Below are positions 20,760-53,235 of a stretch of DNA of 64,000 bases, in pieces (position 1 is the stretch's first letter; every line of letters begins with the position of its first letter). The notes beneath the pieces were generated by a model. That model did not search any database. It was given only the letters and a program-made list of their open reading frames with translations, and was not told the DNA's origin. Position numbers and translations under genes: made by a program. Source of the DNA: a bacterium (GTDB lineage: Bacteria; Patescibacteriota; Patescibacteriia; UBA1558; S5-K13); the NCBI GenBank assembly GCA_029555085.1, contig JAKPTO010000026.1, positions 37,217-101,216 on the forward strand, written 5' to 3'.

Positions 20760-21218
20760 ATGGAAAAATTAATAATTTTGAATAAAAAAATTGACTACGA
20801 ATATGAAATCAAAGAAAAATTTGTAGCTGGATTAGTTTTGTTTGGCGATGAAGTTAAGTCAATAAAAAATTCTTCATTTGACATGAAAGATTCGTATATA
20901 AAAATTTCATCTGAGTCCGAAGTTCTTCTTCTCAATTTTAAAATTTCTCCATACAAAAAATCAAATTTAAACTTATTGAAACACAAACCCAATAGATCCA
21001 TAAAATTACTACTCAAAAAATCTGAAATTAAAAAATTAAATTCTCTTTTAAAAGAAAAATCCTACACTGCCATTCCTAAAAAAATTTTTGTAAAAAACAA
21101 TTTTATAAAAGTTGAAATTGCTGTTGTAAGGGGAAAGAAAAAATATGAAAAAAGAGAATTTATAAAAAATAAAGAAATTAAAAAAGATCTACAAAAAAAT
21201 TATAAACTTCATAGTTAA
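20760..21218 (+). CDS. smpB: SsrA-binding protein SmpB
   Basis: FVAGLVLFGDEVKSIKN, ISPYKK and C-terminal basic tail match the SmpB family. It lies adjacent to the tmRNA. Confidence 0.8.
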   Translation: MEKLIILNKKIDYEYEIKEKFVAGLVLFGDEVKSIKNSSFDMKDSYIKISSESEVLLLNFKISPYKKSNLNLLKHKPNRSIKLLLKKSEIKKLNSLLKEKSYTAIPKKIFVKNNFIKVEIAVVRGKKKYEKREFIKNKEIKKDLQKNYKLHS

Positions 21219-21521: not shown

Positions 21522-21912
21522 GGGGATGTATCAATTTGATGCATAAAAAATTTGTTCTTTGGCAAGTCAAGTTTTGCGAAACTTGTAAAAAACGCTAAAT
21601 CATAAATGTCAAATCATTTATAGAAAAAGTTAAAGTTGCATTTAGTAATCCAGCTTTCAACTTTTCAATTGCTTAATCTTTTTTAAAAATTAAGCCATCC
21701 TCTATCTTCATACTCGATGGGGATTTACGAGGGTGTTATATTTTCGAGTTATACTATGGTAATTTCCATGTGCCATAGTGAAAACTTATGGAATATATAA
21801 ATAATATTTTTCTTATTTATAGTTATTTATAGAATTTTAAAAATAAGATAAACTTGTAGATAAAGAATGAATTGTTAGGCAGACAGGGGTTCAAATCCCC
21901 TCATCTCCACCA
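21522..21912 (+). ncRNA. ssrA: tmRNA (ssrA)
   Basis: 5' GGGGATG pairs with 3' CATCTCC-A-CCA to form a tRNA-like acceptor stem. The 3' T-arm GGGGTTCAAATCCCC is canonical. Length about 391 nt, immediately downstream of smpB. Confidence 0.8.
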
Positions 21913-23195: not shown

Positions 23196-23272
23196 GGAGC
23201 GGTAGTTCAGTTGGTTAGAACGCCTGCCTGTCACGCAGGAGGTCGAGGGTTCGAGTCCCTTCCGTTCCGCCA
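23196..23272 (+). tRNA. tRNA-Asp (anticodon GTC), CCA encoded
   Basis: Manual fold: acceptor GGAGCGG/CCGTTCC with one G-U pair, D-arm TAGTTCAGTTGGTTAGAAC, anticodon loop cTGTCAc, T-arm GAGGGTTCGAGTCCCTT, discriminator G, then CCA. Confidence 0.8.
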
Positions 23273-26049: not shown

Positions 26050-27303
26050 ATGTTTAATTTTCTAAAACAATGCGCCAAACTAGCTATTAATTCACTTCTA
26101 GCTAATAAGACAAGAAGTTTTTTGACTATGCTTGGAATTATAATTGGGGTGTCTGCCGTTATAATTATTACTTCAATTGGAAGCGGTGCTCAAGATTTAA
26201 TTCTCTCTGAAATTAAAATACTTGGAACTGATACTATAAGCATTATGCCTGGCAAAGCAGAAGAAAATGGACCACCAGCTTCTGTCATGGGGATAATAAT
26301 TACAACCCTAACATACGAAGATGCAAAGGCGCTTCTCGAGAAAAAAAATTCTCAGCACATTATTAATGTTGCTGCTTACTCAAACACAAATGCGAATGTT
26401 TCCTGGGGTTCCCAGAGTTCAAACTTTGATATAATAGGAACAAATGTAGGTCACTTAACAATGAATAATTTTAATGTCGAAAGTGGGAGATTTTTTACAA
26501 TCGACGAGGAGAGTAATTTGGCAAAAATAGCAGTTTTGGGTAGTCAAGCGAAAGAAGATTTATTTGGGGATTCTGATGCTATAGGAGAAAAAATAAAAAT
26601 TAAAAAACAGGTCTTTGAGGTAATAGGGATACTAGAAGAAAAAGGAACAGTTGCTTTTCAAAATTATGATGACAAAATTTTTATTCCTATAAAAACAATG
26701 CAAAAATTAATTGTTTCCTCAGATGCTGTTGGGATTATAAGAGCAAAAGTAGACAACGAGAAAAATCTTCCTCTTGCTATAAAAGATGCTGAAACTACAC
26801 TTCGCGAAAGACATGATATAAGAGATAATTCTGGAGAGGATGATGATTTTACTGTTAGTAGTCCCGCAGAAGCACTTGAGGCGATTGAAACTGTTACGGG
26901 TGCTTTAAAATTTTTCTTAGCTGCGATGGGGGCAATTTCACTTATTGTGGGTGGAATTGGAATTATGAATATAATGCTTGTAAATGTCAGCGAACGCACA
27001 AATGAAATAGGTCTTAGAAAAGCAATCGGAGCAAAAAATAACAATATCTTAGTTCAATTTTTAATAGAATCAACAATAATAACACTTTCTGGTGGAATTA
27101 TAGGAATAATATTTGGGATACTTGTTTCTCTGCTTGTTAGTGTTATTGCTCAAGCACTAGATTATAATTGGGGATTCCATGTTTCAATGCTCTCAATAAT
27201 TATGGGAATTATTGTTTCAAGCTCTATAGGAATAATTTTTGGACTATACCCAGCGAAAAAAGCTAGTAAACTTGATCCAATAGAAGCATTAAGATATGAA
27301 TAA
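26050..27303 (+). CDS. ABC transporter permease, FtsX/MacB-type
   Basis: N-terminal TM helix, periplasmic domain of about 220 aa, C-terminal FtsX 3-TM bundle (NIMLVNVSERTNEIGLRKAIGA). Confidence 0.75.
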   Translation: MFNFLKQCAKLAINSLLANKTRSFLTMLGIIIGVSAVIIITSIGSGAQDLILSEIKILGTDTISIMPGKAEENGPPASVMGIIITTLTYEDAKALLEKKNSQHIINVAAYSNTNANVSWGSQSSNFDIIGTNVGHLTMNNFNVESGRFFTIDEESNLAKIAVLGSQAKEDLFGDSDAIGEKIKIKKQVFEVIGILEEKGTVAFQNYDDKIFIPIKTMQKLIVSSDAVGIIRAKVDNEKNLPLAIKDAETTLRERHDIRDNSGEDDDFTVSSPAEALEAIETVTGALKFFLAAMGAISLIVGGIGIMNIMLVNVSERTNEIGLRKAIGAKNNNILVQFLIESTIITLSGGIIGIIFGILVSLLVSVIAQALDYNWGFHVSMLSIIMGIIVSSSIGIIFGLYPAKKASKLDPIEALRYE

Positions 27304-30154: not shown

Positions 30155-32746
30155 TTATTTACTAAAAACCAGTTTCTTGTCAAAAGAAAATCCGTTTACA
30201 TTTACCCGACAAATATAAACACCGCTTGAGCAAATTTTTCCTGAATCATCTTTTGAATCCCAGTTAATAGTTGCTGATTTGGATTTTGTGGGGACAAACT
30301 TTTTTACAAGTTGTCCTTTGATGTTATAAATCGAAATTTGAACTTCAGATGGTTCTTTTGTGTCTTCTATATCAAACATTAAGCTTACTGTGGAGTTAAA
30401 TGGATTTGGAAATATTTCAAATTTCTTTTTTAATAAATTCACTGTTTGACTTGGTGCGAGTATAAGTGACACATCATCAATCCAAACAGGAACATCTTGT
30501 TCTCCCAAATTCCATGAAATGCGTGCAATTCCAGAACTTGTGGCAGTAAAGCTCATTGTATAATTTTGCCAATCAGTTCCAGTGCTCACAACTTGCCATA
30601 GGCCAAAATTATTCCAGGGAGAATTTTCATTATATAACTCTACCTGGATTTGTCTTTGTGAGGTAGATTTCGCCCAGAAAGACAAAGTATAATTTTGACC
30701 CGATACAATGTTTAAATTCTGGTACAATTGAACCTCGAAGTGCAAACCATTTTGATTGGGATCAATAAATATTGAGTTATTCCCTGAATGGTAAATAGAA
30801 TTATCAATATAATAACTCGCTGTGGAATTGAGATCGCCAACCTCAAATGGTGCAAAATTTCCTGTTTCAAAACCAGGATTTATTATTAAATTATCTCCTT
30901 CTGTTTCCATATCAGATATTTTTTCAAAAACAACATTATCAAAATATTTACAACCAGCTGACTCGCCAATCATAAAATTCAAACGCGCTAATTGATCAGT
31001 TGTATTTGCTATAAAAATATACTGATATTTTTTCCAAGTTGAAGTGAGATTAATCTCTTTCCATAGACCATAATTATTCCATGGATCATTGTTGTTTTGT
31101 ATGCAAAATTTAATTCCCGATGCAGGATTGGATTTTGCCCAAAAAGAAACATTATATGACTCGCCTGATTCAATTTCAACAAGTTGCATAAGTTCTTCTT
31201 CGTAAAATAATCCGGAATCACCAATATTGATTTCTGCTTTAAAGTTTCCATCAACGCAATCACCGGATGTTATATCGAAACTTGCGCTATTTCTACTGTC
31301 ATTTAAAATCCAATAATTACAAATTCCAGAATCAAATCCACCGTCTTCGAAGTCACCACCCTGATAATCAACCATTCCACCACCAGCAAAATATTGAATA
31401 TTTTCTCCGGATTGAAATGAATTAACATCGCTATCGGAAACTTCTAAAACATTAGCAAAATTAAACCCATAGGTATTGAAGGTTGATTCGTCTATAATGA
31501 GACGACGCAATCCATTTTCTATATAATAACAAGCTGGACCTGGACCAGAAATTAATTTTCCATCCATGATTTTTTCATAGCTTACAAATGGCGCAATCTG
31601 ATAATAATTTAAAACATTTTGAGTAACTACTATATTAAAATTTGAATGATAATAGTTAATCATATAAACATTGTCAGAAAGCAATCTCAGAAGAATCTTT
31701 TGTCCAGTGTATGAAGAAGAAACTTCAATCCCTCGTTTAATAACATATCGTTCGTTCATGTTATTTACATTTTGCAATACTGTTCCGTATGGATAATCGC
31801 TTGAAGATGTAAGTTCAGATCCTTCCGCAAATTGAGATAAATATGAACTTGTTGTTGGAATCCAAACATCCGCAGAGTATCCTAATTGTTGCCAATTATT
31901 TACCCTTCGCTTCACAATTGTCGTAGAATTGTTTGACTGATAATCAAATACCCATCTCTGAGAATTCTCATCATAAACACAAGTTCCAACTTTTGGACTA
32001 ATATCAGGACCAATTGAAAATGAATTGAATTCTTCTTGACTAATTTCAACTGCATCAGACCAGTCAAATCCCCAAGTATAAAAAGGTGTCTCACTAGTAA
32101 ATCGTTGCATTTGCCTGTCACGAATCCAATAATAATTTGGAGTATTAGTTACATGAACCAATAAATCATCTGGTAGAATTCTTGGTTGTGAAACAACAAT
32201 GCCTGGGAGTGATGGCGGGTTTGATACGAAATAATGTTTATCTGGATTACAACCATTATTATATTGTTGTGTGTTGTTACTATACCAACCATAGGGATCA
32301 ATTGGTTCATTATTATAGTAAACACCAAAGTGAAGGTGAGGGTTGGTTGAATAACCAGTGTCACCCACCTTTCCTATAAATTGTCCTTGGTAAACAAATT
32401 CTCCGACAGAAACAGTTGCAGTATGGTAAAGCATGTGCGCGTATATTGTTTTGTAACCATTTCCATGGTCTATTTTCACATAATTACCATAATCCGTTCC
32501 TGTTCCATCTGGAATATCTCTTTGCACCGCAATAACCTGTCCACCATAAGCAGAAAGAATTCTTGTTCCCTCTACTGCGGAATAATCAATTCCGTAATTA
32601 TAGTTATAACTATAACTAGGTGGATATTGCCAACCAGATGAAATTATAAAATTTCCTTCAATGGGGAGTGTGAATATATGATCCACACCGAACAAATAAC
32701 CACAACACATTGTGATTATTACTAGAATTGTCATGAGAGTTTTCAT
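30155..32746 (-). CDS. Secreted peptidase M23 (LytM-type) with carbohydrate-binding-module-like domains and a T9SS-type C-terminal sorting domain
   Basis: Signal peptide. M23 motifs: HxxxD region and HLHFGVYY (HxH). CBM4/9-like segments. C-terminal roughly 85 aa IFPNPFNSTVSLMF...ISIYNIKGQLV...INWDSKDDSGKICSSGVYICRV...KKLVFSK matches the Por_Secre_tail pattern. Confidence 0.65.
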   Translation of the reverse strand: MKTLMTILVIITMCCGYLFGVDHIFTLPIEGNFIISSGWQYPPSYSYNYNYGIDYSAVEGTRILSAYGGQVIAVQRDIPDGTGTDYGNYVKIDHGNGYKTIYAHMLYHTATVSVGEFVYQGQFIGKVGDTGYSTNPHLHFGVYYNNEPIDPYGWYSNNTQQYNNGCNPDKHYFVSNPPSLPGIVVSQPRILPDDLLVHVTNTPNYYWIRDRQMQRFTSETPFYTWGFDWSDAVEISQEEFNSFSIGPDISPKVGTCVYDENSQRWVFDYQSNNSTTIVKRRVNNWQQLGYSADVWIPTTSSYLSQFAEGSELTSSSDYPYGTVLQNVNNMNERYVIKRGIEVSSSYTGQKILLRLLSDNVYMINYYHSNFNIVVTQNVLNYYQIAPFVSYEKIMDGKLISGPGPACYYIENGLRRLIIDESTFNTYGFNFANVLEVSDSDVNSFQSGENIQYFAGGGMVDYQGGDFEDGGFDSGICNYWILNDSRNSASFDITSGDCVDGNFKAEINIGDSGLFYEEELMQLVEIESGESYNVSFWAKSNPASGIKFCIQNNNDPWNNYGLWKEINLTSTWKKYQYIFIANTTDQLARLNFMIGESAGCKYFDNVVFEKISDMETEGDNLIINPGFETGNFAPFEVGDLNSTASYYIDNSIYHSGNNSIFIDPNQNGLHFEVQLYQNLNIVSGQNYTLSFWAKSTSQRQIQVELYNENSPWNNFGLWQVVSTGTDWQNYTMSFTATSSGIARISWNLGEQDVPVWIDDVSLILAPSQTVNLLKKKFEIFPNPFNSTVSLMFDIEDTKEPSEVQISIYNIKGQLVKKFVPTKSKSATINWDSKDDSGKICSSGVYICRVNVNGFSFDKKLVFSK

Positions 32747-33575: not shown

Positions 33576-33608
33576 AAAAAAAGGCGTCGTATTACTACGA
33601 CGCCTTTT
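33576..33608 (-). terminator. Rho-independent terminator (stem ggcgtcgta/tacgacgcc), bidirectional
   Basis: GC-rich 9-bp stem flanked by an A7 run and a T4 run, 27 bp downstream of the 1707-aa gene stop. Confidence 0.65.
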
Positions 33609-33634: not shown

Positions 33635-36600
33635 TTATTTTTTATATAAAGTGGAAACAAATCTTTGCATTCTGTCATTCAATACATCTAAAGCAATTCT
33701 TGTACTTTCTGGTGCGTTTTTTGGTATGCTCTTTAATGTGAGTTCCCAAAATTTTATCTCAAAATTATTTAACTTACTACTACCTGTTCTTTCCAGCTTT
33801 ATATCGCTTAATAATTTAAATGCTTTATCGTGTACAATGTCTTTATTAGCACTCTCCGTAATTATTCTATATAATTCAGTACCTCGTTCTCGGCTATAAA
33901 AAAATGTTCCAACTGAACTAACATCTGATGTCTGTTTAATAATGGAACCATTTTCATCAAATACTTGTTTAAGTGTTCCGCTTCTTCCCGCCTCCTTAAA
34001 AGTAACGAGCTTTGTATAATCATCGAGCCATTTCTCTGTTATTGTTCCTGTATTTGTTTTTATAATTTCTATATTTGGCTCGGAAATCAATTCTTGAAAA
34101 TTATTCTCTGTAATTTGCTCTAAGCCGGGACTTTGTGGATCAAGATCTGCATAATATTCCCCATGGTCTTTTTGAATTTCCAACACCCGATTATTACCAA
34201 CATTCGTTTCAAATTTAACTGGAATATTGTCTTCAACATCTTTCAATGCCTCTTCCAACTCAGAAAATGTATTAACTCTTTTAACTCCTAGTATCTCTGT
34301 TTGATTTTGAGCTATAGGCACACGATCTAATATATCTTCGACAGGTGTCCGTCCTGATATACCTTTGGTAGGCACATGATCTGGCTCAATAGTCAAATTT
34401 TGAACTGAGGATACTTGGTCTGATATATCTTCTATATTTGACTCAGAAATCAATTCTTGAAAATTATTCTCTGTAATTTGCTCTAAACCAGGGAGATTAG
34501 GATTAAAGTCTGTGTAATATTCTCCATTGTCCTCTATAATCCGTACAACATTACCACCAATTTCTACATCAGCCGAAGCACCTGCCTCTTTAAACTGAAA
34601 TACTTCTTTCAAATCAGAAAAATCCCTAACCACTGGAACCTCTGATGTTTCTATAGGTACATTAGTCAATGTATCTGGGGTGACTTCTATACTTTCTGTA
34701 GGTACATGATCTAACATATCTTCAGTGGGTACATGATCTGGTTTAATAACTGGGATTTCTGTATTACCATTATTAAACTCATCTTGCAACCTCGCTATTT
34801 GAAAATTTAACTCCTCTCCAGTATTTTGCTGTTGTGAAAGTAATTCTCGAGTTGCATTTAGTTCCTCAGATATCTTCGCTTGTATATTGGATGGAATATT
34901 TGGATCATCTAGCATTTCTTCTAATCTGGTAATTGATAATTTTGACTTTATTATATCATCATTTAACTCAAAATATTTACTTTGTAGCTCTTCTATTTGC
35001 TCAGGATAATTTGACTTAACTATATCTTCTACGGGTAGCACTTCTCTTACATTTGTTGGTCTGACAATTTCTGAAACATTAGGACCATGTTTGGGCTTAA
35101 TGACGCCCATTACATTATCTACATAATGTTTGTAAAAACTTTCATAAGACTTGGGTTTGACAAAGGCAAAAACCTCGTTAGTTTCTGGATCAACGACAAC
35201 TCTTGCTCCCGGCGCAACAACATTTGCATCAAAATTTTTAAGAATCAATGGTTCGCCATTAGGTCCAGAAGTAACAAGTGTCATTTTTGAACCACGAGGC
35301 ATGCTTATACCCAAAGTTTCAGAAACACTAGAGCCCTTAGCTACTGGAACGCCTTGATCTGCCAACTCTTGAATACGTTGAGGGTTCAAACCCTTAATAT
35401 CTTGAAAATTAGATACATCTGATTTTTTTGGAGAAAAACTTTGTGATGCCTCATTTATATCATCCGCTCGACTTGTTGAGATAACCTGATCTTTTTTACC
35501 AAAAACAGAGTTCTTCAAATTCTCAAAAGACTTTCCTAATCTCTCCATTCTTGAAACTATATCAGCATAACTTACAAAATTATCTTTCATGTTTTCCAAT
35601 ACATTACCCTGAGTAAATGTTTTGGTAAAACATTGTACCATGTTATCCACACTTGCACCAGATGTTTGTATTCCTGATAAAGCTTGCGTTCCCATACCAA
35701 GAGCCATTAATAATTCCCCCCAAGCTCTCATCATGGTAGTTTTTTTATCAAAACCTTTTAATTTTCTAACATCACTATGTTTTTTTAATTTATCATTTTC
35801 TACATAAAAACTTGATTCATATCGTTTTCCAGATAATCCATAATATGTTTCTAAAAACATTGTTTTAAATGCATCTCCAAGATATTGATGTGCTTTCATT
35901 TTTTCGCCAACCTTATTCCAGGAATATTCCTTTTGATATTTCAATGCTGATTTATCTAATTTTCCACCAAATGCAAATATTCCATACATAGCACCTCGAA
36001 GTCCAGCCGCACCTATCCCGCCACCAAAAACCATAGCCGTATTAAGTGCATCTTTTACAAGTATACTTCCATTTACTGTTCCTTGTATATAATCTTGCAA
36101 AATATAATCTATTTTTTTTGACCTTTGTTTTCTTAAATCATTTTTTGATTCCAAATTCGTAAGTAGAACTTTGTTTAATCTATTTCTCATTGTCATCTGA
36201 TCATGATCAGAAATAATATACAATAACTTTTCTTTATCTGTTAATGAACCTTCGTTAAACTTTTTTTCTATTTCTTGTCTTTTTTCTTTTGGTAAATCAT
36301 AATAATTCTGAGATCTGGCATTCTTTATCATTTCATTATATTGCATTGCTTTTTCTTTTACATCATCTACAGAAATTTTTTCATTTTTTATAAAATTTTC
36401 TCTAATTTTATTATTCTCCATTGAAAGAGTTTTTATTTTACGCTCTAATTCTTCTCTTTCTGTTTCATCTTTTGTGTTTTTATATATCTCTACATATCTA
36501 GATATTGCAGCAACTCTTCTTTTGTAATTATCATCTTGGTAAAGCTTCTGAAATTTTTCCTTATTAGAAGAAATCAACTCTGCTAAATCGCTTGTTTTCT

Positions 36601-38758
36601 TTTCTGCCTCAACCCTATCTTTCTTTGTTTCACTTTTTTGATCAAAATATTTATACACATCTGTTCTCTTGCCAAGAGCAAAATTAATTTTTCCTCCACT
36701 TATTTTATCAAGTCCATGCGCAAGTCCAGCGCCAATCCAATCACCAATGGCTTTAACACCAAACATTGAACCGATAATATTATATATTCCCTTACCTGTT
36801 GCTGCGCATAAGGCCCTCTTTTCTTCTTTTTCTTCTGGTGTTTTTGGTTTCTTAAAAATCAAATCAAAAGTTTTCTTAACCCTATCCTTAAATTTAACTT
36901 TTATCTGTTCTTCTTTTAACTCTTCATTGATAATATGTTCTTCCGGCGTATTAGATTGAATTTCTTTTTCTGATTCAAAATTATTGTAAGTAGATGTCCA
37001 TTTTATTTCTTGTCCCCATTCTGGACTGGTATGGGTAGATGTCCATTTTGCTTCCTGTCTCTCTCCTTGACTCGTATTAGTTTCCCATTGTTGTTCTTGA
37101 TTAGTATTAGATATTGTCTCTGGTTTTATTTCTTTTATTCCAAGTACATTGCTTATATATGTATTTGTATTTTCAAGAAGACTTGGTGCTATTTTTGTCA
37201 CAAAATTTACAATAAAAGACTCATTACCCTCCCTACCCTCATCTTCTACTCTATCCTTAGCTTCTAAAAATTTTCTTACCTCAATAATCTGATTATCGCT
37301 TAGTCTACTCAACTTGTACTTTAAAATATCAACTCCGGTATTTTCTAATTCTAAATGTTTATTAAAAAATTTTTCCTCTGTTTTCGGCAAATCGTCTTCA
37401 AAGACTTGTTTTTCTTTAATAACCTCCTCTTCTGATTTTTCAAAATTCTCTGATTTTGAAGTCTCTTCTTTTTCTGATTTAATCTTTTCTTCTGAATTTC
37501 CTAACAACTCTTTAACTTTATCTCTTAAACCGTATGCTCTAGTAACGAAATTAATATGATAGCTTTCGTGTCTCACTTGATCAATTATCTGCTTCAATTC
37601 CTCTGGACTATATTTTTCTTTGGTACCATCTATTGTCCCAATTTCTTCTATGGCAGAAAATAATTCCTCAAAATTTTTAGCATTGCTAATTTTTGCTTTT
37701 TGATTTTCTAGTAACTCTACAACCTTATCTCTTAAACCGTATGTTCTAGTAACATAAGTATTGCGAAGATCTCCATTCCTTACTTGGTTAATGATCTGCT
37801 TCAATTCCTCTGGACTATATTTTTCTTTGGTACCATCTATTGTCCCAATTTCTTCTATGGCAGAAAATAATTCCTCAAAATTTTTAGCATTGCTAATTTT
37901 TGCTTTCCTATCTTCTTCTGTTTCTATTGTATTTTTTTTATTTTTCCCCTCAATTTCTTTTTTAGATTCACTTTCTCTCATCATTTCAATGAGTTTTTTT
38001 GCATGCATTTTAGCCCATTGAATTTGTCCTTCATTATTTTCATAATCTAAACCTGCTTCTGGGTTAGGATGATTATCTTTTTCCCTATTTTCTATATCAT
38101 GTTGTTTCCAACTCATAAGAATTTTATACGCAATAGCTGTTTCTAAATCATTTGTAGTATCTCTATACATGTCATAATGTTTGTAATAATCATTAAAAAT
38201 GCCTTTATAATCTATACCCGTTTCCATATCTGGATTTTCAAAAAAATTCTTATACACTTTTTCAACTTCAGATTCCATATATTTATAATCTTCTGGATTG
38301 TCTGGTAATTCTGTTTTTATAACTCTCTCTGGAACCTGATCTAAAACATTGAGATCTTTTTCTGATTCAAATTTTTCATCTATTTTTTCTTGTCCATCTT
38401 CGGGGATTTCTTTCGCATACTCGTCTGATGCTGATATAATTTCTTTTGCCCTTTTTATTCTCTTATTAATCTCAGGGACTAATTTTCTTAAATCTTCTAA
38501 ATAATTAAAAAAAAGAGAACGATCTTCATCAAATGTTTCTTGGTCACTCGATATAAGTATATATTGATCTGCACTAAATGATATATCCGACCTAATTTCT
38601 TCGAGTAATTCTTCACCCCTATTTAATATTTTCTCTAAAGCTTGTTTCTTAAATCTTATGAATCCATCTGGGTTATTATTATCTATAAATTCTCTGTATT
38701 GCTCATTCTTATCAACTAAATTTTTTAAATTCTCTGTAGGTTGTTTTATTTTATCCAT
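33635..38758 (-). CDS. Giant repeat-containing protein (1707 aa): coiled-coil N-terminal region, Gly-rich amphipathic/hydrophobic central segments, repeat-rich C-terminus. Function unknown.
   Basis: No signal peptide. A roughly 70-aa module (KAKISNAKNFEELFSAIEEIGTIDGTKEKYSPEELKQII.QVR) is duplicated. Gly-zipper-like segments GIGAAGLRGAMYGIFAFGG. C-terminal repeats PGLEQITENNFQELISE.NIE appear twice. Confidence 0.5.
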   Translation of the reverse strand: MDKIKQPTENLKNLVDKNEQYREFIDNNNPDGFIRFKKQALEKILNRGEELLEEIRSDISFSADQYILISSDQETFDEDRSLFFNYLEDLRKLVPEINKRIKRAKEIISASDEYAKEIPEDGQEKIDEKFESEKDLNVLDQVPERVIKTELPDNPEDYKYMESEVEKVYKNFFENPDMETGIDYKGIFNDYYKHYDMYRDTTNDLETAIAYKILMSWKQHDIENREKDNHPNPEAGLDYENNEGQIQWAKMHAKKLIEMMRESESKKEIEGKNKKNTIETEEDRKAKISNAKNFEELFSAIEEIGTIDGTKEKYSPEELKQIINQVRNGDLRNTYVTRTYGLRDKVVELLENQKAKISNAKNFEELFSAIEEIGTIDGTKEKYSPEELKQIIDQVRHESYHINFVTRAYGLRDKVKELLGNSEEKIKSEKEETSKSENFEKSEEEVIKEKQVFEDDLPKTEEKFFNKHLELENTGVDILKYKLSRLSDNQIIEVRKFLEAKDRVEDEGREGNESFIVNFVTKIAPSLLENTNTYISNVLGIKEIKPETISNTNQEQQWETNTSQGERQEAKWTSTHTSPEWGQEIKWTSTYNNFESEKEIQSNTPEEHIINEELKEEQIKVKFKDRVKKTFDLIFKKPKTPEEKEEKRALCAATGKGIYNIIGSMFGVKAIGDWIGAGLAHGLDKISGGKINFALGKRTDVYKYFDQKSETKKDRVEAEKKTSDLAELISSNKEKFQKLYQDDNYKRRVAAISRYVEIYKNTKDETEREELERKIKTLSMENNKIRENFIKNEKISVDDVKEKAMQYNEMIKNARSQNYYDLPKEKRQEIEKKFNEGSLTDKEKLLYIISDHDQMTMRNRLNKVLLTNLESKNDLRKQRSKKIDYILQDYIQGTVNGSILVKDALNTAMVFGGGIGAAGLRGAMYGIFAFGGKLDKSALKYQKEYSWNKVGEKMKAHQYLGDAFKTMFLETYYGLSGKRYESSFYVENDKLKKHSDVRKLKGFDKKTTMMRAWGELLMALGMGTQALSGIQTSGASVDNMVQCFTKTFTQGNVLENMKDNFVSYADIVSRMERLGKSFENLKNSVFGKKDQVISTSRADDINEASQSFSPKKSDVSNFQDIKGLNPQRIQELADQGVPVAKGSSVSETLGISMPRGSKMTLVTSGPNGEPLILKNFDANVVAPGARVVVDPETNEVFAFVKPKSYESFYKHYVDNVMGVIKPKHGPNVSEIVRPTNVREVLPVEDIVKSNYPEQIEELQSKYFELNDDIIKSKLSITRLEEMLDDPNIPSNIQAKISEELNATRELLSQQQNTGEELNFQIARLQDEFNNGNTEIPVIKPDHVPTEDMLDHVPTESIEVTPDTLTNVPIETSEVPVVRDFSDLKEVFQFKEAGASADVEIGGNVVRIIEDNGEYYTDFNPNLPGLEQITENNFQELISESNIEDISDQVSSVQNLTIEPDHVPTKGISGRTPVEDILDRVPIAQNQTEILGVKRVNTFSELEEALKDVEDNIPVKFETNVGNNRVLEIQKDHGEYYADLDPQSPGLEQITENNFQELISEPNIEIIKTNTGTITEKWLDDYTKLVTFKEAGRSGTLKQVFDENGSIIKQTSDVSSVGTFFYSRERGTELYRIITESANKDIVHDKAFKLLSDIKLERTGSSKLNNFEIKFWELTLKSIPKNAPESTRIALDVLNDRMQRFVSTLYKK
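37520..37950. repeat. Intragenic tandem duplication, unit about 213 bp x 2, with a stretch of about 130 bp that is 100% identical
   Basis: The sequence ttatctgcttcaattcctctggactatatttttctttggtaccatctattgtcccaatttcttctatggcagaaaataattcctcaaaatttttagcattgctaatttttgcttt occurs at about 37578 and again at about 37790. Confidence 0.75.
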
Positions 38759-39296: not shown

Positions 39297-40073
39297 TTAT
39301 TTTAATAATAAATTATACAATTTTTTATATTTTTTGTCAATAAATAAAAAATAACTCGCAAATAATATAAAAATTAAAGCCATTATTTGCGGAAATCTAA
39401 TTCCGAAAATATGAAGTGTTGTATCAATTCTTAAAAATTCCATAAAAAACCTAATAATTCCATAACCAAAAACATACAACAAAAATATTCTTCCTTCTTT
39501 GTAATGTCTCTTAAATACTCTCATTAGTATAAAAAATAAAATTAAATTTAAAATAAATTCATATGCAAATATGGGATGATGATGAAACCCTGTTTTTTGT
39601 ATATATATTGCCCATGGCACATTTGAAACTTTTCCATACAATTCTGAGTTAAAAAAATTACCCCATCTCCCAATTGCTTGCCCAAGTGGAACAACAAGAG
39701 CAAAAATATCTAAATATTTTAGCGAATTCAATTTATGCTTTTTACAATAAAAATAAACAGTTAATATTCCAGCTATTATTGCTCCTTGAATTGCTATACC
39801 GCCACGCCAAATTCTAAAAATCTCCCAAAAATTATACTTATAATATTTAAAATCGAAAAACAATACTGAGTAAATTCTAGCCCCAATTATTCCAAAAATT
39901 ATAATATAAAAATATAAATTTTCTAAATGATTTTTATCAATTTCACTGCCCCTGGATAATCTTTCTATTAAATACATACACAATAAAATACCAAAAACTA
40001 CTATAATTCCGTAAAAATATACATTGATTAACCCAAGGCGCAGTAATATTGGATGTGGATTTGCATTTATCAT
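39297..40073 (-). CDS. lgt: Prolipoprotein diacylglyceryl transferase
   Basis: Multi-TM protein with the Lgt signature GIIGARIY...GNFFNSELYG and overall Lgt topology. Length 258 aa. Confidence 0.7.
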   Translation of the reverse strand: MINANPHPILLRLGLINVYFYGIIVVFGILLCMYLIERLSRGSEIDKNHLENLYFYIIIFGIIGARIYSVLFFDFKYYKYNFWEIFRIWRGGIAIQGAIIAGILTVYFYCKKHKLNSLKYLDIFALVVPLGQAIGRWGNFFNSELYGKVSNVPWAIYIQKTGFHHHPIFAYEFILNLILFFILMRVFKRHYKEGRIFLLYVFGYGIIRFFMEFLRIDTTLHIFGIRFPQIMALIFILFASYFLFIDKKYKKLYNLLLK

Positions 40074-50339: not shown

Positions 50340-51554
50340 TTATTGATAATATTTATTTCTATTATAGTTAAATTCAAAAGATTTATTAAAATCAGATACT
50401 AATGATGGAATATTTGAAACCATAATTGACTCATCGTTTCTAAAAAATCCCCCAGAACTCCAATTATTTGTTCCAAAAAGAGCTATTTTATCATCAAAAA
50501 TCATTAGATGATGGTGTAAAAAAGAATTTAAATTTTGTTCATTAAATATTTGTTTTAATTCTTTATTTCTATTTTCATCAGTCAAAATTTCTAAATTATC
50601 TAAATGATTTTGCTTTTTCTTTTTTATCATAAAATTAAATACGGAACCATCTACTGAAAAATTATAATCATCTGTTAAAATTTTTACACTAATCTTTTTT
50701 GATGCTAATAATAAATCTTCTGCAATATCTCTATCTGTCATAAGCCAAATCATGGATTTTATGTTGTCCTTTGAATTCTCAATCAGATTCAACATTCTAT
50801 CCTTGATACCAGTATTTATTCTTTGTGGAGTAAACCAAATTTCTAAAAATCCTTCTGGATATTTTATAAGAGCAGCGAATGGATTATATTCTTTTGATAA
50901 TTTATCTCTTCCGCGTAAACCAGAAAATATTCTATCAAATTCCTCTCCATATATTTCAATAATTTCTGGCCTGTCAGTTTCTAAAATAAAACTCGGATCA
51001 TATTTATCTTGAATATAAGTAAAATTATAAGAACTAAAGAGTAATTTCTGGGTCTCCTCGCCTCTATCAATTATTATAAATTTATGATGCATGTATTCTG
51101 ATTTTTGAGTATTAATGTTCCTAGACAAAATATCTTTTCTTGTAATATTATCTCGCTTTTCTGAAAACAATCTATTATTTATATCTCTATGCACATCACT
51201 AAAAACTAATTTTATATTCACTCCTCTGTCTGATGCTTTATAAATTGCATCTCTTATCCTTTCGTCGTTCATAGAATAAATAGCCACTTCAATGGTTTTT
51301 TGTGCAGAATTTATAGAATCAATAACAATTTTTGACAAAATGTTTTGTCCAAATTCATCATTAAAATGTAAACTCCCTGAAAATGGTTCTGTGATTTCTA
51401 TGATTTTCGCAGGCCTAAATTCTACTATTCTTCTCTTCGAAAAAGATGTAAAAAATAAGTATATAAAAATTCCCATTGTAATTAATAAAAGAATTGGAAT
51501 TGCCCAAAAAATAAATGTCTTATGTGATTTTTCTAATTTCATCACCCAGCTCAT
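50340..51554 (-). CDS. Membrane-anchored phospholipase D superfamily protein (cardiolipin-synthase-like), two HKD-type motifs
   Basis: N-terminal TM helix. Motif 1 is HHKFIIIDRGEE...SSYN (HxKxxxxD...GSxN-like). Motif 2 is HHHLMIFDDKIALFGTNN, which is Cls-like but has His where the Lys is expected. Confidence 0.6.
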   Translation of the reverse strand: MSWVMKLEKSHKTFIFWAIPILLLITMGIFIYLFFTSFSKRRIVEFRPAKIIEITEPFSGSLHFNDEFGQNILSKIVIDSINSAQKTIEVAIYSMNDERIRDAIYKASDRGVNIKLVFSDVHRDINNRLFSEKRDNITRKDILSRNINTQKSEYMHHKFIIIDRGEETQKLLFSSYNFTYIQDKYDPSFILETDRPEIIEIYGEEFDRIFSGLRGRDKLSKEYNPFAALIKYPEGFLEIWFTPQRINTGIKDRMLNLIENSKDNIKSMIWLMTDRDIAEDLLLASKKISVKILTDDYNFSVDGSVFNFMIKKKKQNHLDNLEILTDENRNKELKQIFNEQNLNSFLHHHLMIFDDKIALFGTNNWSSGGFFRNDESIMVSNIPSLVSDFNKSFEFNYNRNKYYQ

Positions 51555-53235
51555 ATTTTTGCTGATAAGTTAAATAATTATTATTTTCTTTTGAAAATAC
51601 TATAATAATAGAATCTTCAAGTTTTTCACTTAATATTTCTATTATTTTTATAATATCATTATAATTCAAATCAATCCAAATATTGTCAATAATAATAAGT
51701 TGTTTTTTATTAACTATGCAATGGAGCGCTTGAAGAGCAAAGCATGAAACATTATTATTAAAAGCCAACACACAAGAAGAATTAACATTATTTATAGAAG
51801 ATATTTTTGATGCAATAAATTGATTTTCAGATATTACCTTGATCACATTTTCAATTTCAGAAGAATTAATTTGTTCTTTATCTTTCCCTAAAATAAACTC
51901 CATCAAACTTTTTTCTGAAAATATTTTAGGATCGAAAAAATATGCGCCACAGAATAATTTTTGCCATATTGGATAATCATATCTTTTATTGTCTATTTTC
52001 ACCTTCATTGCCTTGGGATTATAAATACGCATTCCTGCAAAAATTTTAGCCAAACTTGTTTTTCCTGAAAAATTCTCTCCAAAAAATAAAATTCTTTCTG
52101 ATTTTTTAAAATGAAAATCTAGATTTCTGAAATATTTACCATCTTTAAATAATTTTGTTTTTTTTGCGTGAAACAATATTTCATTATGAATTTTTAAAGT
52201 ATTTTTTCTACGCAAAACTGCTCCTTTTTGCAATACTGTTAAAAACAAACCCAATCTTGCTGGAAAAAAATATAAACCAACTCTTAGCGCTTGATTAAGT
52301 GTTCTTGGAAAATAGAACATTAAAAATAAAAATAAAAATCTATTATCTCTACCAAGTAAATTTATAAAAGAAAAAAACTCATTTGTAAAAAAATTGCTTA
52401 AAATTACAATTATCAAAACTATCACAAATACAATTTTTGCGCTTATTCCAATCCAAAGATTTCTTCTAATGCGAAAAAAAGAATCTATATTAACAAGACG
52501 ATCAAACTTTTGTAGCACACTATCTTCATTATTAAAATTTTTATTAAAATATTTTTCTGATAAGCTAATATCGATATGTTTTATTATTTGTGAATAAAAA
52601 GTGACTTCTTGCGAAATATATTTTTTTGCAACATAATAAGCTATTATTCCTATAAGAATAGAAAGTGCCACGAAAAAAACGAAAACAATAAATAAATTTA
52701 ATCCTATTAAATATGCAATGAGCATTGCCACAGAAAAATATATGAACCATCTAATTATTCCAAAAAAAACAATTGATACACCCATTGAAACAAGCGATAA
52801 TTGATAAGAAATTTTTGCTATTAACCTACCCTGCCTTTCGTTGTTCATTGTTTCAACGGGTCTATCAATAAATGATTTAAATATTCTGCGCCTAATATCA
52901 TTTGCAAATAATACCACAATAGTTTTTTCTTGTTTTATAGAAAAAAATGAACTTATGATAAACAACAATATAAAAATAGCAAAAAATTGCCAAAAAAATG
53001 GGTCTAAAATACTATTTAGCTGAGATAATTTATTTCTACTAAATACAATAAGAAACGCTTCTATTACACAGGAAACAAAAATTAAAAGAACAAGACGCAA
53101 AATATAAAATTTATATTTTTTAAAAAAATCTCGTAAATACCCGTAATGTAAAAACGATAATTTTATATCTTTGTATTTATTCCTTGTTTTTCTAATTTCT
53201 TTTATTAATCTAATTTGTTCTTTTATTTCTTTCAT
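51520..53235 (-). CDS. ABC-exporter-like protein (6-TM domain plus degenerate nucleotide-binding domain)
   Basis: TMD followed by Walker A GENFSGKTS. No recognisable LSGGQ signature. Walker B is LIIIDN (Asp-Asn, not Asp-Glu). The H-loop His is not evident. Overlaps the RT gene by 26 nt and the PLD-like gene by 35 nt. Confidence 0.55.
   Translation of the reverse strand: MKEIKEQIRLIKEIRKTRNKYKDIKLSFLHYGYLRDFFKKYKFYILRLVLLIFVSCVIEAFLIVFSRNKLSQLNSILDPFFWQFFAIFILLFIISSFFSIKQEKTIVVLFANDIRRRIFKSFIDRPVETMNNERQGRLIAKISYQLSLVSMGVSIVFFGIIRWFIYFSVAMLIAYLIGLNLFIVFVFFVALSILIGIIAYYVAKKYISQEVTFYSQIIKHIDISLSEKYFNKNFNNEDSVLQKFDRLVNIDSFFRIRRNLWIGISAKIVFVIVLIIVILSNFFTNEFFSFINLLGRDNRFLFLFLMFYFPRTLNQALRVGLYFFPARLGLFLTVLQKGAVLRRKNTLKIHNEILFHAKKTKLFKDGKYFRNLDFHFKKSERILFFGENFSGKTSLAKIFAGMRIYNPKAMKVKIDNKRYDYPIWQKLFCGAYFFDPKIFSEKSLMEFILGKDKEQINSSEIENVIKVISENQFIASKISSINNVNSSCVLAFNNNVSCFALQALHCIVNKKQLIIIDNIWIDLNYNDIIKIIEILSEKLEDSIIIVFSKENNNYLTYQQKYELGDEIRKIT

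Follow-up and report, generated by a model that had tools for sequence, protein, structure and literature searches.

A giant protein with a conserved basic core and variable arms, encoded in a predicted three-gene operon of Candidate Phyla Radiation-like bacteria

Introduction

What would a Candidate Phyla Radiation (CPR) bacterium use a protein of 1707 amino acids (aa) for, when its sequence recalls no known family? This question is raised by a 64,000-nucleotide (nt) stretch of a Patescibacteriota genome (contig JAKPTO010000026.1 of assembly GCA_029555085.1, positions 37,217–101,216; hereafter the window), the minus strand of which encodes such a giant protein preceded by two small open reading frames (ORFs), o105 and o62. 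Much of bacterial diversity belongs to the CPR, whose members are host-dependent, and the ways in which they attach to and exploit these hosts are largely unknown. Giant, fast-evolving modular proteins are already known as a general kind from host-dependent ultra-small bacteria. An initial annotation, made from the letters of the DNA alone, had pointed out an exact internal duplication and Gly-rich segments in the giant protein and had proposed a secreted effector or toxin, possibly a substrate of a type IV secretion system (T4SS). Here we identify the protein, by sequence comparison, as an enlarged member of an undescribed family that is found only in some CPR-like bacteria. On the same comparison, the lineage of the window has extended the basic core of this family by two acidic arms, one N-terminal and composed of a 284-aa domain, a pair of 69-aa modules and a linker, the other C-terminal and built from repeats.

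Results

The core family

An exhaustive HMMER search of 1.84 billion proteins with aa 508–1707 as the query returned 19 family representatives that are 30–48% identical over aa ~605–1230 (among them P0046, P0047 and P0049–P0055; we number proteins with P, loci with L and alignments with A). A word-indexed search for homologues detected next to nothing for this low-complexity giant protein (5, 5 and 1 matches), and a first scan of GTDB genomes with the single giant protein gave no matches. The distant members are 1019–1275 aa long and occur in metagenome-assembled genomes (MAGs) titled Candidatus Falkowbacteria UBA1359, Candidatus Parcubacteria and Patescibacteria group, and twelve further members lie on metagenome contigs, mostly from anaerobic digesters. 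The organism of the window is most likely itself a CPR bacterium from anaerobic digesters, with Parcubacteria and Falkowbacteria as its kin. Three MAGs titled ‘uncultured Gammaproteobacteria bacterium’ (contigs L009, L010, L013) also carry the pair of o105 and core gene; these organism names are probably wrong, and in L009 and L013 the pair is preceded by LigA, GatA and DsbA genes, as in the Falkowbacteria and Patescibacteria MAGs. No Pfam domain was found in the 14 core-family members scanned, and literature searches brought up no description of the core family, of o105 or of the modules and domain that go with it. The core family, o105, the small α/β domain described below and the 69-aa module are absent from all libraries searched.

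The core of the window protein consists of three conserved Gly-rich, moderately hydrophobic helices amid long helices, followed by the small α/β domain (Table 1). Its invariant or near-invariant motifs in alignment A3 are G[KQ]RTDVYKY, YYDLPKxKR, KDALNTA..GG..AG..RG..YG, KEYSWN, ETYYGLSGK and GEL...G.G.QA. The charge of the protein is split between a core with an isoelectric point (pI) of 9.3 and arms with pI 4.1–4.7. The small α/β domain is the most widely shared element of the family (alignment A5, 12 sequences). AlphaFold2 (AF2) gives this domain a predicted local distance difference test (pLDDT) score of 77–90, and no fold match was found for it; the AF2 model of the core is poor (mean pLDDT 53.7), with aa 605–1100 modelled as long helices.

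Integrity of the giant gene and its internal repeat

The giant protein (196 kDa, pI 5.1) contains 2 Cys in 1707 aa. The N-terminal end is hydrophilic throughout and the signal peptide is absent, as initially noted, from this intact, ATG-started ORF; the high charge described for the N-terminal half is borne out by the sequence. Could such a gene, with an exact internal repeat, be an assembly artefact or a decaying pseudogene? The existence of the repeat is the only observation in favour of this idea. Exactly this 1707-aa protein is present on 18 contigs and in 3 NCBI MAGs, and therefore the repeat is no assembly artefact. A JGI contig differs from the window by 1 nt within the giant gene, resulting in the substitution L331I. 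Furthermore, in an independent, indel-prone assembly (an ENA contig with frameshifted fragments), both module copies are collinear with the window with 0 mismatches, so that the repeat is not collapsed in either the short-read or the indel-prone assemblies compared. The ENA contig was also considered as a long-read check and rejected in that role, being a low-coverage (1.8x) SPAdes-style node. A typical read pair would span the exact run of the repeat (113 nt), the reading frame is unbroken, and the promoter, terminator and partner genes are conserved. The giant gene is real, and an origin as artefact or pseudogene is effectively excluded. The population variation in repeat count that the initial annotation had proposed to look for did not appear: no different copy number of the 69-aa module was seen among the available assemblies.

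Tandem Repeats Finder places a tandem duplication in the giant gene with a 207-nt period, i.e. 69 aa, and 1.9 copies, and a repeat finder gives 85% identity overall between the copies. The module duplication described initially thus stands, with the unit corrected from 70 to 69 aa and the identical stretch from about 130 to 113 nt (37587–37699 matching 37794–37906). The rest of the repeat unit (~107 nt) is ~71% identical, with the amino acid changed in 13 of the 31 codons; since the remainder has diverged this far, an unbroken run of 113 matches cannot have arisen by chance. Because 113 nt at 100% identity adjoin ~107 nt at ~71%, the repeat is a mosaic, in which the first 113 nt of an old duplication would have been homogenised recently, either through gene conversion or because part of the unit was duplicated again. 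This pattern fits the recent duplication or recombination that had been suggested from the identity alone.

Evolution of the arms

The 69-aa module is not confined to the window protein. It occurs once in the syntenic orthologue P0002, four times in P0004 and once in P0005, the latter two being giant proteins otherwise unrelated to the window protein and located on other CPR-like contigs. Designed β-trefoils matched only 17 aa of the module in the PDB search, and we rejected this as a chance match. The N-terminal domain (aa 1–284) is common only to the syntenic orthologues P0002 and P0003, with 41–44% identity, and has no PDB or Pfam match. In the C-terminal arm, the repeats that the initial annotation had listed are present, namely PGLEQITENNFQELISE.NIE at aa 1423 and 1544 and DHVPT[EK] at aa 1341, 1350 and 1460, together with a DNA repeat of 117 nt with 80% identity and 363-nt spacing. 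The ~63-aa module of this arm is also found in P0002 (two copies), P0003 (two copies), P0057 and P0046, and the C-terminal domain (aa 1571–1707) has no relatives in the exhaustive HMMER search.

The syntenic giant genes of five lineages encode proteins of very different length: 1707 aa in the window, 2142 aa in L002 and L003, 1479 + 180 aa in L004, 1535 aa in L007 and 1806 aa in L008. In L004 (10001–15092), the giant gene is split into these two pieces in comparison with the 2142-aa P0002, the 180-aa piece corresponding to the C-terminus of P0002. Among these close relatives the neighbouring genes are 50–86% identical, whereas the arms of the giant protein are unalignable or replaced. The window protein is 44% identical to that of L002 over the N-terminal 350 aa and 27% identical over the C-terminal arm, and its centre is unalignable with those of L002 and L004; with L007, the core aligns but the arms do not. 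The L002/L004 lineage has lost o105 and has its centre replaced by another type. The two core types share the small α/β domain only (hhalign probability 99.8%), and a homology of the P0002-type centre to the A3-type core was rejected, none being detectable beyond this domain.

The N-terminal arm of P0002 contains a HopA1 domain (PF17914) at aa 510–623 with 44.7 bits (cut-off 22.7), and a Pfam search of the window protein gave no HopA1 match at E ≤ 1. Since an unrelated acidic linker fills the corresponding position in the window protein, HopA1 is a swappable passenger of the arm and not a feature of the window protein or of the family core. These comparisons identify tandem duplication, gene conversion and module swapping as the apparent modes by which the arms evolve.

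A three-gene operon at a fixed chromosomal position

The two tiny upstream ORFs that had been linked to the giant gene do go with it. Because they share a predicted promoter and a predicted terminator (Table 1), o105, o62 and the giant gene form one putative three-gene operon with the giant gene as the last cistron. The intergenic gaps in the unit are 4, 10 and 17 nt (10 nt between o105 and o62, 17 nt between o62 and the giant gene). L002 and L004 retain the TTGACA..TATAAT context upstream of their operons, L008 has a variant with TTGACC, and the terminator hairpin is conserved in L002 and L007. In L010, L012, L013 and L014, a promoter-like CTTGTAA-N17-TAATCT/TAAGCT lies ~50 nt upstream of the o105 homologues and replaces TTGACA/TATAAT.

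A homologue of o105 (104–117 aa, alignment A4) lies directly upstream of the core gene on the same strand in 20 of the 20 loci that include upstream sequence. In the distant clade the gap between the two genes is 4–11 nt; o62 is missing there and o105 lies next to the core gene. The close clade has o62 between the two, with ORFs 37–50% identical at the same position in L002, L004, L007 and L008. Neither o105 nor o62 has a match in Pfam, NCBIfam, PHROGs, PADLOC or the PDB, and a kinship of o105 to the DUF5663-type small ORFs beside other CPR giant proteins was considered and dropped, as no relation was detectable. The long o105 homologues (L009–L015) end in ..KELSDLRQTIK, like the o62 C-terminus ..KKLENIRKKFLNK. 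A tail of this kind is missing from o105 wherever the clade possesses o62; hhalign picks the same register with an E-value of 0.035, which is not significant. This gives only a hint that o62 might be a split-off or duplicated tail of o105 homologues.

Upstream of the operon lie genes for PilD, four pseudopilins, LigA, GatC, GatA, DsbA and Lgt, and downstream of it genes for a Cys-rich, membrane-anchored 181-aa protein (o181), an M23 peptidase, an S11 peptidase and a MacAB-like ATP-binding cassette (ABC) system. L002, L004, L007 and L008 all share the order PilD–pseudopilins–LigA–GatC–GatA–DsbA–Lgt–[o105]–o62–giant gene–o181–M23. In the distant CPR MAGs, the order of LigA, GatA, DsbA, o105 and core is kept and dnaG and rpoD then follow. 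Relative to the distant clade, o105 is ~40% and the core ~33–35% identical, while LigA is 43% and GatA 41% identical; therefore the pair of o105 and core diverges about like housekeeping genes, unlike a mobile toxin island. The gene orders and identities show an operon that, as far as such comparison can tell, has been passed on vertically and has kept its place in the chromosome among housekeeping genes.

Searches against known families

No explanatory match to the giant protein was found in Pfam, NCBIfam, PHROGs, PADLOC or the PDB. PDB profile searches with the core gave chance coiled-coil matches only (E ≥ 0.09), and those with the whole protein and alignments A1–A5 gave only chance coiled-coil or low-complexity matches, including 3due with E 0.005. 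A Foldseek comparison of the AF2 core model with the PDB was meaningless (best E 0.69, on a low-confidence model). Neither the giant protein nor its partners matched a toxin, translocator, LXG/WXG, RTX, type III secretion system (T3SS), T4SS or type VII secretion system (T7SS) family. Pfam, NCBIfam and PDB profiles revealed no SMC_N, ATPase head, tubulin, actin or intermediate-filament signature in the giant protein, and the SMC-like or cytoskeletal family that the initial annotation had named as an alternative was not matched. Among the annotated ORFs of the 64-kb window, scanned except for a few at the 3’ end, neither T3SS nor T4SS genes turned up; the only secretion-related genes among these ORFs are the type IV pilin/PilD genes and the MacAB-like ABC system. 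Relatives were absent from 2.9 million viral contigs. The locus is, by all these searches, neither phage-borne nor a known defence system, and a toxin or T4SS substrate as the nature of the giant protein is unsupported.

Table 1. Coordinates of the giant gene, its parts, its operon and other features of the window.
Feature	Residues or size	Window position	Strand	Remarks
Giant gene	1707 aa	33635–38758	−	intact ORF, ATG start
N-terminal domain	aa 1–284	37907–38758	−	acidic; alignment A2
69-aa module, copy 1	aa 285–353	37700–37906	−	
69-aa module, copy 2	aa 354–422	37493–37699	−	first 113 nt identical to copy 1
Acidic linker	aa 423–604	36947–37492	−	Trp-containing short repeats; position of HopA1 domain in P0002
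Basic core	aa 605–1230	35069–36946	−	family-defining; pI 9.3; HMMER, alignment A3
Gly-rich segment 1	aa 649–690	36689–36814	−	followed by conserved G[KQ]RTDVYKY motif
Gly-rich segment 2	aa 897–935	35954–36070	−	KDALNTA..GG..AG..RG..YG
Gly-rich segment 3	aa 1008–1032	35663–35737	−	GEL...G.G.QA
Small α/β domain	aa ~1120–1215	35114–35401	−	KGSSVSETLG ... APGARV; alignment A5
C-terminal arm	aa 1231–1570	34049–35068	−	acidic; helical stretch, DHVPT repeats, two ~63-aa modules (aa 1374–1436, 1492–1557)
C-terminal domain	aa 1571–1707	33638–34048	−	basic
Predicted promoter		39312–39340	−	sigma-70 type, TTGACA-17-TATAAT (12/12); inside 3’ end of lgt, 20 nt upstream of o105
o105	105 aa	38975–39292	−	acidic (pI 4.9), helical, no signal peptide
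o62	62 aa	38776–38964	−	basic (pI 9.6), probably helical/coiled-coil
Predicted intrinsic terminator		33579–33608	−	13-bp G+C-rich hairpin and T run; 27 nt past giant gene stop codon
o181	181 aa	32935–33480	−	N-terminal membrane anchor, 6 Cys
M23 peptidase		30155–32746	−	two CBM_4_9 domains and a Por_Secre_tail domain
Second giant ORF	1847 aa	14813–20356	−	
Reverse transcriptase (RVT_1)	405 aa	53210–54427	−	
ABC-transporter ORF		51520–53235		
tmRNA gene		21522–21912	+	Rfam, 91 bits
smpB		20760–21218	+	next to tmRNA gene
tRNA-Asp		23196–23272		

Other genes of the window

The o181 gene is conserved in L002, L004, L007 and L008 and is cut off from the giant gene by the terminator. It has no family match in Pfam, NCBIfam, PHROGs or PADLOC scans, and its JGI name (ABC permease subunit) looks spurious. 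Throughout the close clade the M23 peptidase gene keeps its position two genes downstream of the giant gene; its product carries a C-terminal sorting domain of the type IX secretion system (T9SS), which is unexpected for a CPR-like genome. The second giant ORF has no Pfam or PADLOC match and is unrelated to the 1707-aa protein, its sole feature being a short collagen-like Gly-rich stretch (aa 372–400). Its 90% cluster comprises 15 sequence variants, a population variation far above that of the 1707-aa gene. The 405-aa reverse transcriptase gene overlaps the end of the ABC-transporter ORF; the protein resembles a group II intron reverse transcriptase/maturase (124.9 bits, well under the NCBIfam cut-off of 300) and also matches the generic reverse transcriptase and DRT models of PADLOC. 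The window also has a tmRNA gene beside smpB and a tRNA-Asp gene. From ~26915 (window ~26303–27300), the window is out of register with the near-identical JGI contig (L001 21456–22630), and the MacB/FtsX permease gene at this position is intact in the window (417 aa) and split into 125 + 263 aa on the JGI contig; the shift reflects either a strain indel or an assembly error.

Discussion

What, then, might the giant protein do? The reading that we tentatively put first, and that we hold to be somewhat short of an even chance, is an envelope scaffold that is associated with the membrane, inherited vertically and equipped with swappable arms, probably serving host contact. The basic Gly-rich centre would hold the giant protein at or in the cytoplasmic membrane and envelope, while o105, joined by o62 in this clade, would act as a cytoplasmic assembly or chaperone partner. 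The variable acidic arms would bear lineage-specific interaction modules, or catalytic ones such as the HopA1 domain in the sister lineage, and would most plausibly serve to contact the host cells that such bacteria need. A precedent is the CPR bacterium Vampirococcus lugosii, in which ten giant membrane proteins of 1392–4163 aa have been proposed as host-attachment factors (PMC8080830). The likeness lies in the very large size, the modular, repeat-bearing architecture, a host-dependent ultra-small bacterium as the likely owner and the proposed role in host recognition or attachment. However, the Vampirococcus giants carry WD40, TPR, PKD and saposin domains and have a predicted membrane localisation, whereas the window protein shows neither a recognisable domain nor a signal peptide nor a classical transmembrane helix; moreover, a pair of o105 and core genes has not been described for Vampirococcus. 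The likeness is one of description and implies no sequence relationship.

Several observations weigh against an envelope scaffold of this kind. The giant protein and its partners have no signal peptide, and the scarcity of Cys and the housekeeping neighbourhood would fit a cytoplasmic protein equally well. The Gly-rich GxxxG stretches that the initial annotation had likened to pore-forming or membrane-insertion segments are present at the three positions of Table 1, and the likeness to insertion segments fails on their hydrophobicity. On the Hessa scale, the best window among them has an apparent insertion energy of +6.0 kcal/mol and all are at least +6, in comparison with −6.2 to +2.6 kcal/mol for the genuine membrane helices of Lgt, DsbA and o181 from the same genome, and their Eisenberg mean hydrophobicity (H 0.5–0.57, with a low hydrophobic moment) is below the transmembrane range. 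No Gly-zipper Pfam family matches the giant protein. The segments are Gly-zipper-like in pattern but, by these predictions, are not ordinary membrane-spanning helices, and they need not touch the membrane at all. Segment 1 of the sister subfamily is more hydrophobic (+1.4 to +2.9 kcal/mol). The poor AF2 model of the core also counts against the envelope reading, as does the footing of the CPR assignment, which comes from shared synteny and from the names given to related genomes.

If the protein does not reach the envelope, it may instead be a structural or cytoskeletal scaffold of the cytoplasm that serves, for example, to divide the cell, to handle the chromosome or to organise a pilus base, with o105 and o62 as co-subunits and the Gly-rich helices used for helix–helix packing. 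In addition to the missing signal peptides and classical transmembrane helices, the 2 Cys of the protein versus the 6 of the neighbouring exported o181, the housekeeping synteny (ligA–gatCA upstream, dnaG–rpoD downstream) with its housekeeping-like divergence, and a central region that is modelled as a confident helical bundle are consistent with this idea. We nevertheless consider it unlikely, as the signatures of SMC, ATPase, tubulin, actin and intermediate-filament proteins are lacking, the family is limited to a narrow clade (19 representatives among 1.84 billion proteins), and the arms and even the centre are replaced wholesale between close relatives, which would be unusual in a core cytoplasmic machine. 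The effector idea of the initial annotation takes the same absence of signal peptides in another direction: the protein would be a secreted effector or pore-forming translocator, o105 and o62, two small helical ORFs of the same operon just upstream of the giant gene, would assist its export as chaperones, the target (host) membrane would take up the Gly-zipper helices, and the arms would act as effectors, either delivered or displayed. Pore-forming toxins and T3SS translocators whose helical bundles surround a hydrophobic or Gly-rich hairpin, such as IpaB/SipB, ClyA and the colicin pore domains, resemble the window protein in their long helices, Gly-rich and moderately hydrophobic helices, lack of a signal peptide and small helical ORFs upstream. 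The Foldseek matches include IpaB, ClyA and LegC3, all insignificant (E 0.7–5, TM-score 0.04–0.11, on the low-confidence model). The GxxxG ladders are conserved and come near transmembrane hydrophobicity in segment 1 of the sister subfamily, the arms evolve fast, and, given the HopA1 domain that the orthologue at this locus carries, an effector flavour is not far-fetched. The HopA1/LanY family includes the T3SS effector HopA1 of Pseudomonas syringae and CaoY, a demonstrated phosphoserine/phosphothreonine lyase of class V lanthipeptide synthesis (PMC9486802). However, the likeness to this family exists only via P0002, which NCBI has named accordingly, and the window protein has no such domain. 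It also differs from pore-forming toxins and T3SS translocators in having no sequence match to them, no secretion apparatus among the annotated genes nearby and too low a hydrophobicity in its Gly-rich segments. Together with the lack of a match to any of the secretion-related families searched, the absence of an immunity-like gene, and the vertical inheritance of a core and o105 that diverge like housekeeping genes with no sign of mobility, these differences make an effector or translocator improbable to us.

The gene order would also be compatible with a remnant of a phage tail module, in which a tape-measure protein comes after two small chaperone genes and before a peptidoglycan hydrolase, and the likeness extends to the helical, Gly-rich composition of the long protein and to the M23 peptidase two genes downstream. 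This likeness is superficial. The giant protein, o105 and o62 have no PHROGs match and no relative on the 2.9 million viral contigs, other phage genes are missing from the neighbourhood, the terminator parts the giant gene from the downstream genes, and the position among housekeeping chromosomal genes is kept across deep lineages. A phage origin is effectively refuted. A bolder variant of the host-contact idea would make the pair of o105 and core a CPR-specific delivery device that is independent of secretion systems, the basic Gly-zipper centre inserting into the host cell membrane where episymbiont and host touch and then carrying or presenting interchangeable arm modules, for example the HopA1-type phosphoserine/phosphothreonine lyase found in the sister lineage. 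We regard this as a long shot; if true, the pair would represent a new kind of contact-dependent effector translocator in bacteria without classical systems.

Returning to the envelope scaffold that we favour, its value lies in what can now be asked of it. A hypothetical giant ORF has become a testable unit, with a three-gene operon, a ~620-aa core, an ever-present partner gene and module-swapping arms. These arms swap modules between close lineages, including an enzyme-type effector domain. The core family, the small α/β domain, the 69-aa module and the o105 family are unannotated and are candidates for domain databases. If the core is cytoplasmic, the family would be a clade-specific structural machine; if it anchors in or inserts into the membrane, the family would provide a handle on the host interface of Parcubacteria-type organisms.

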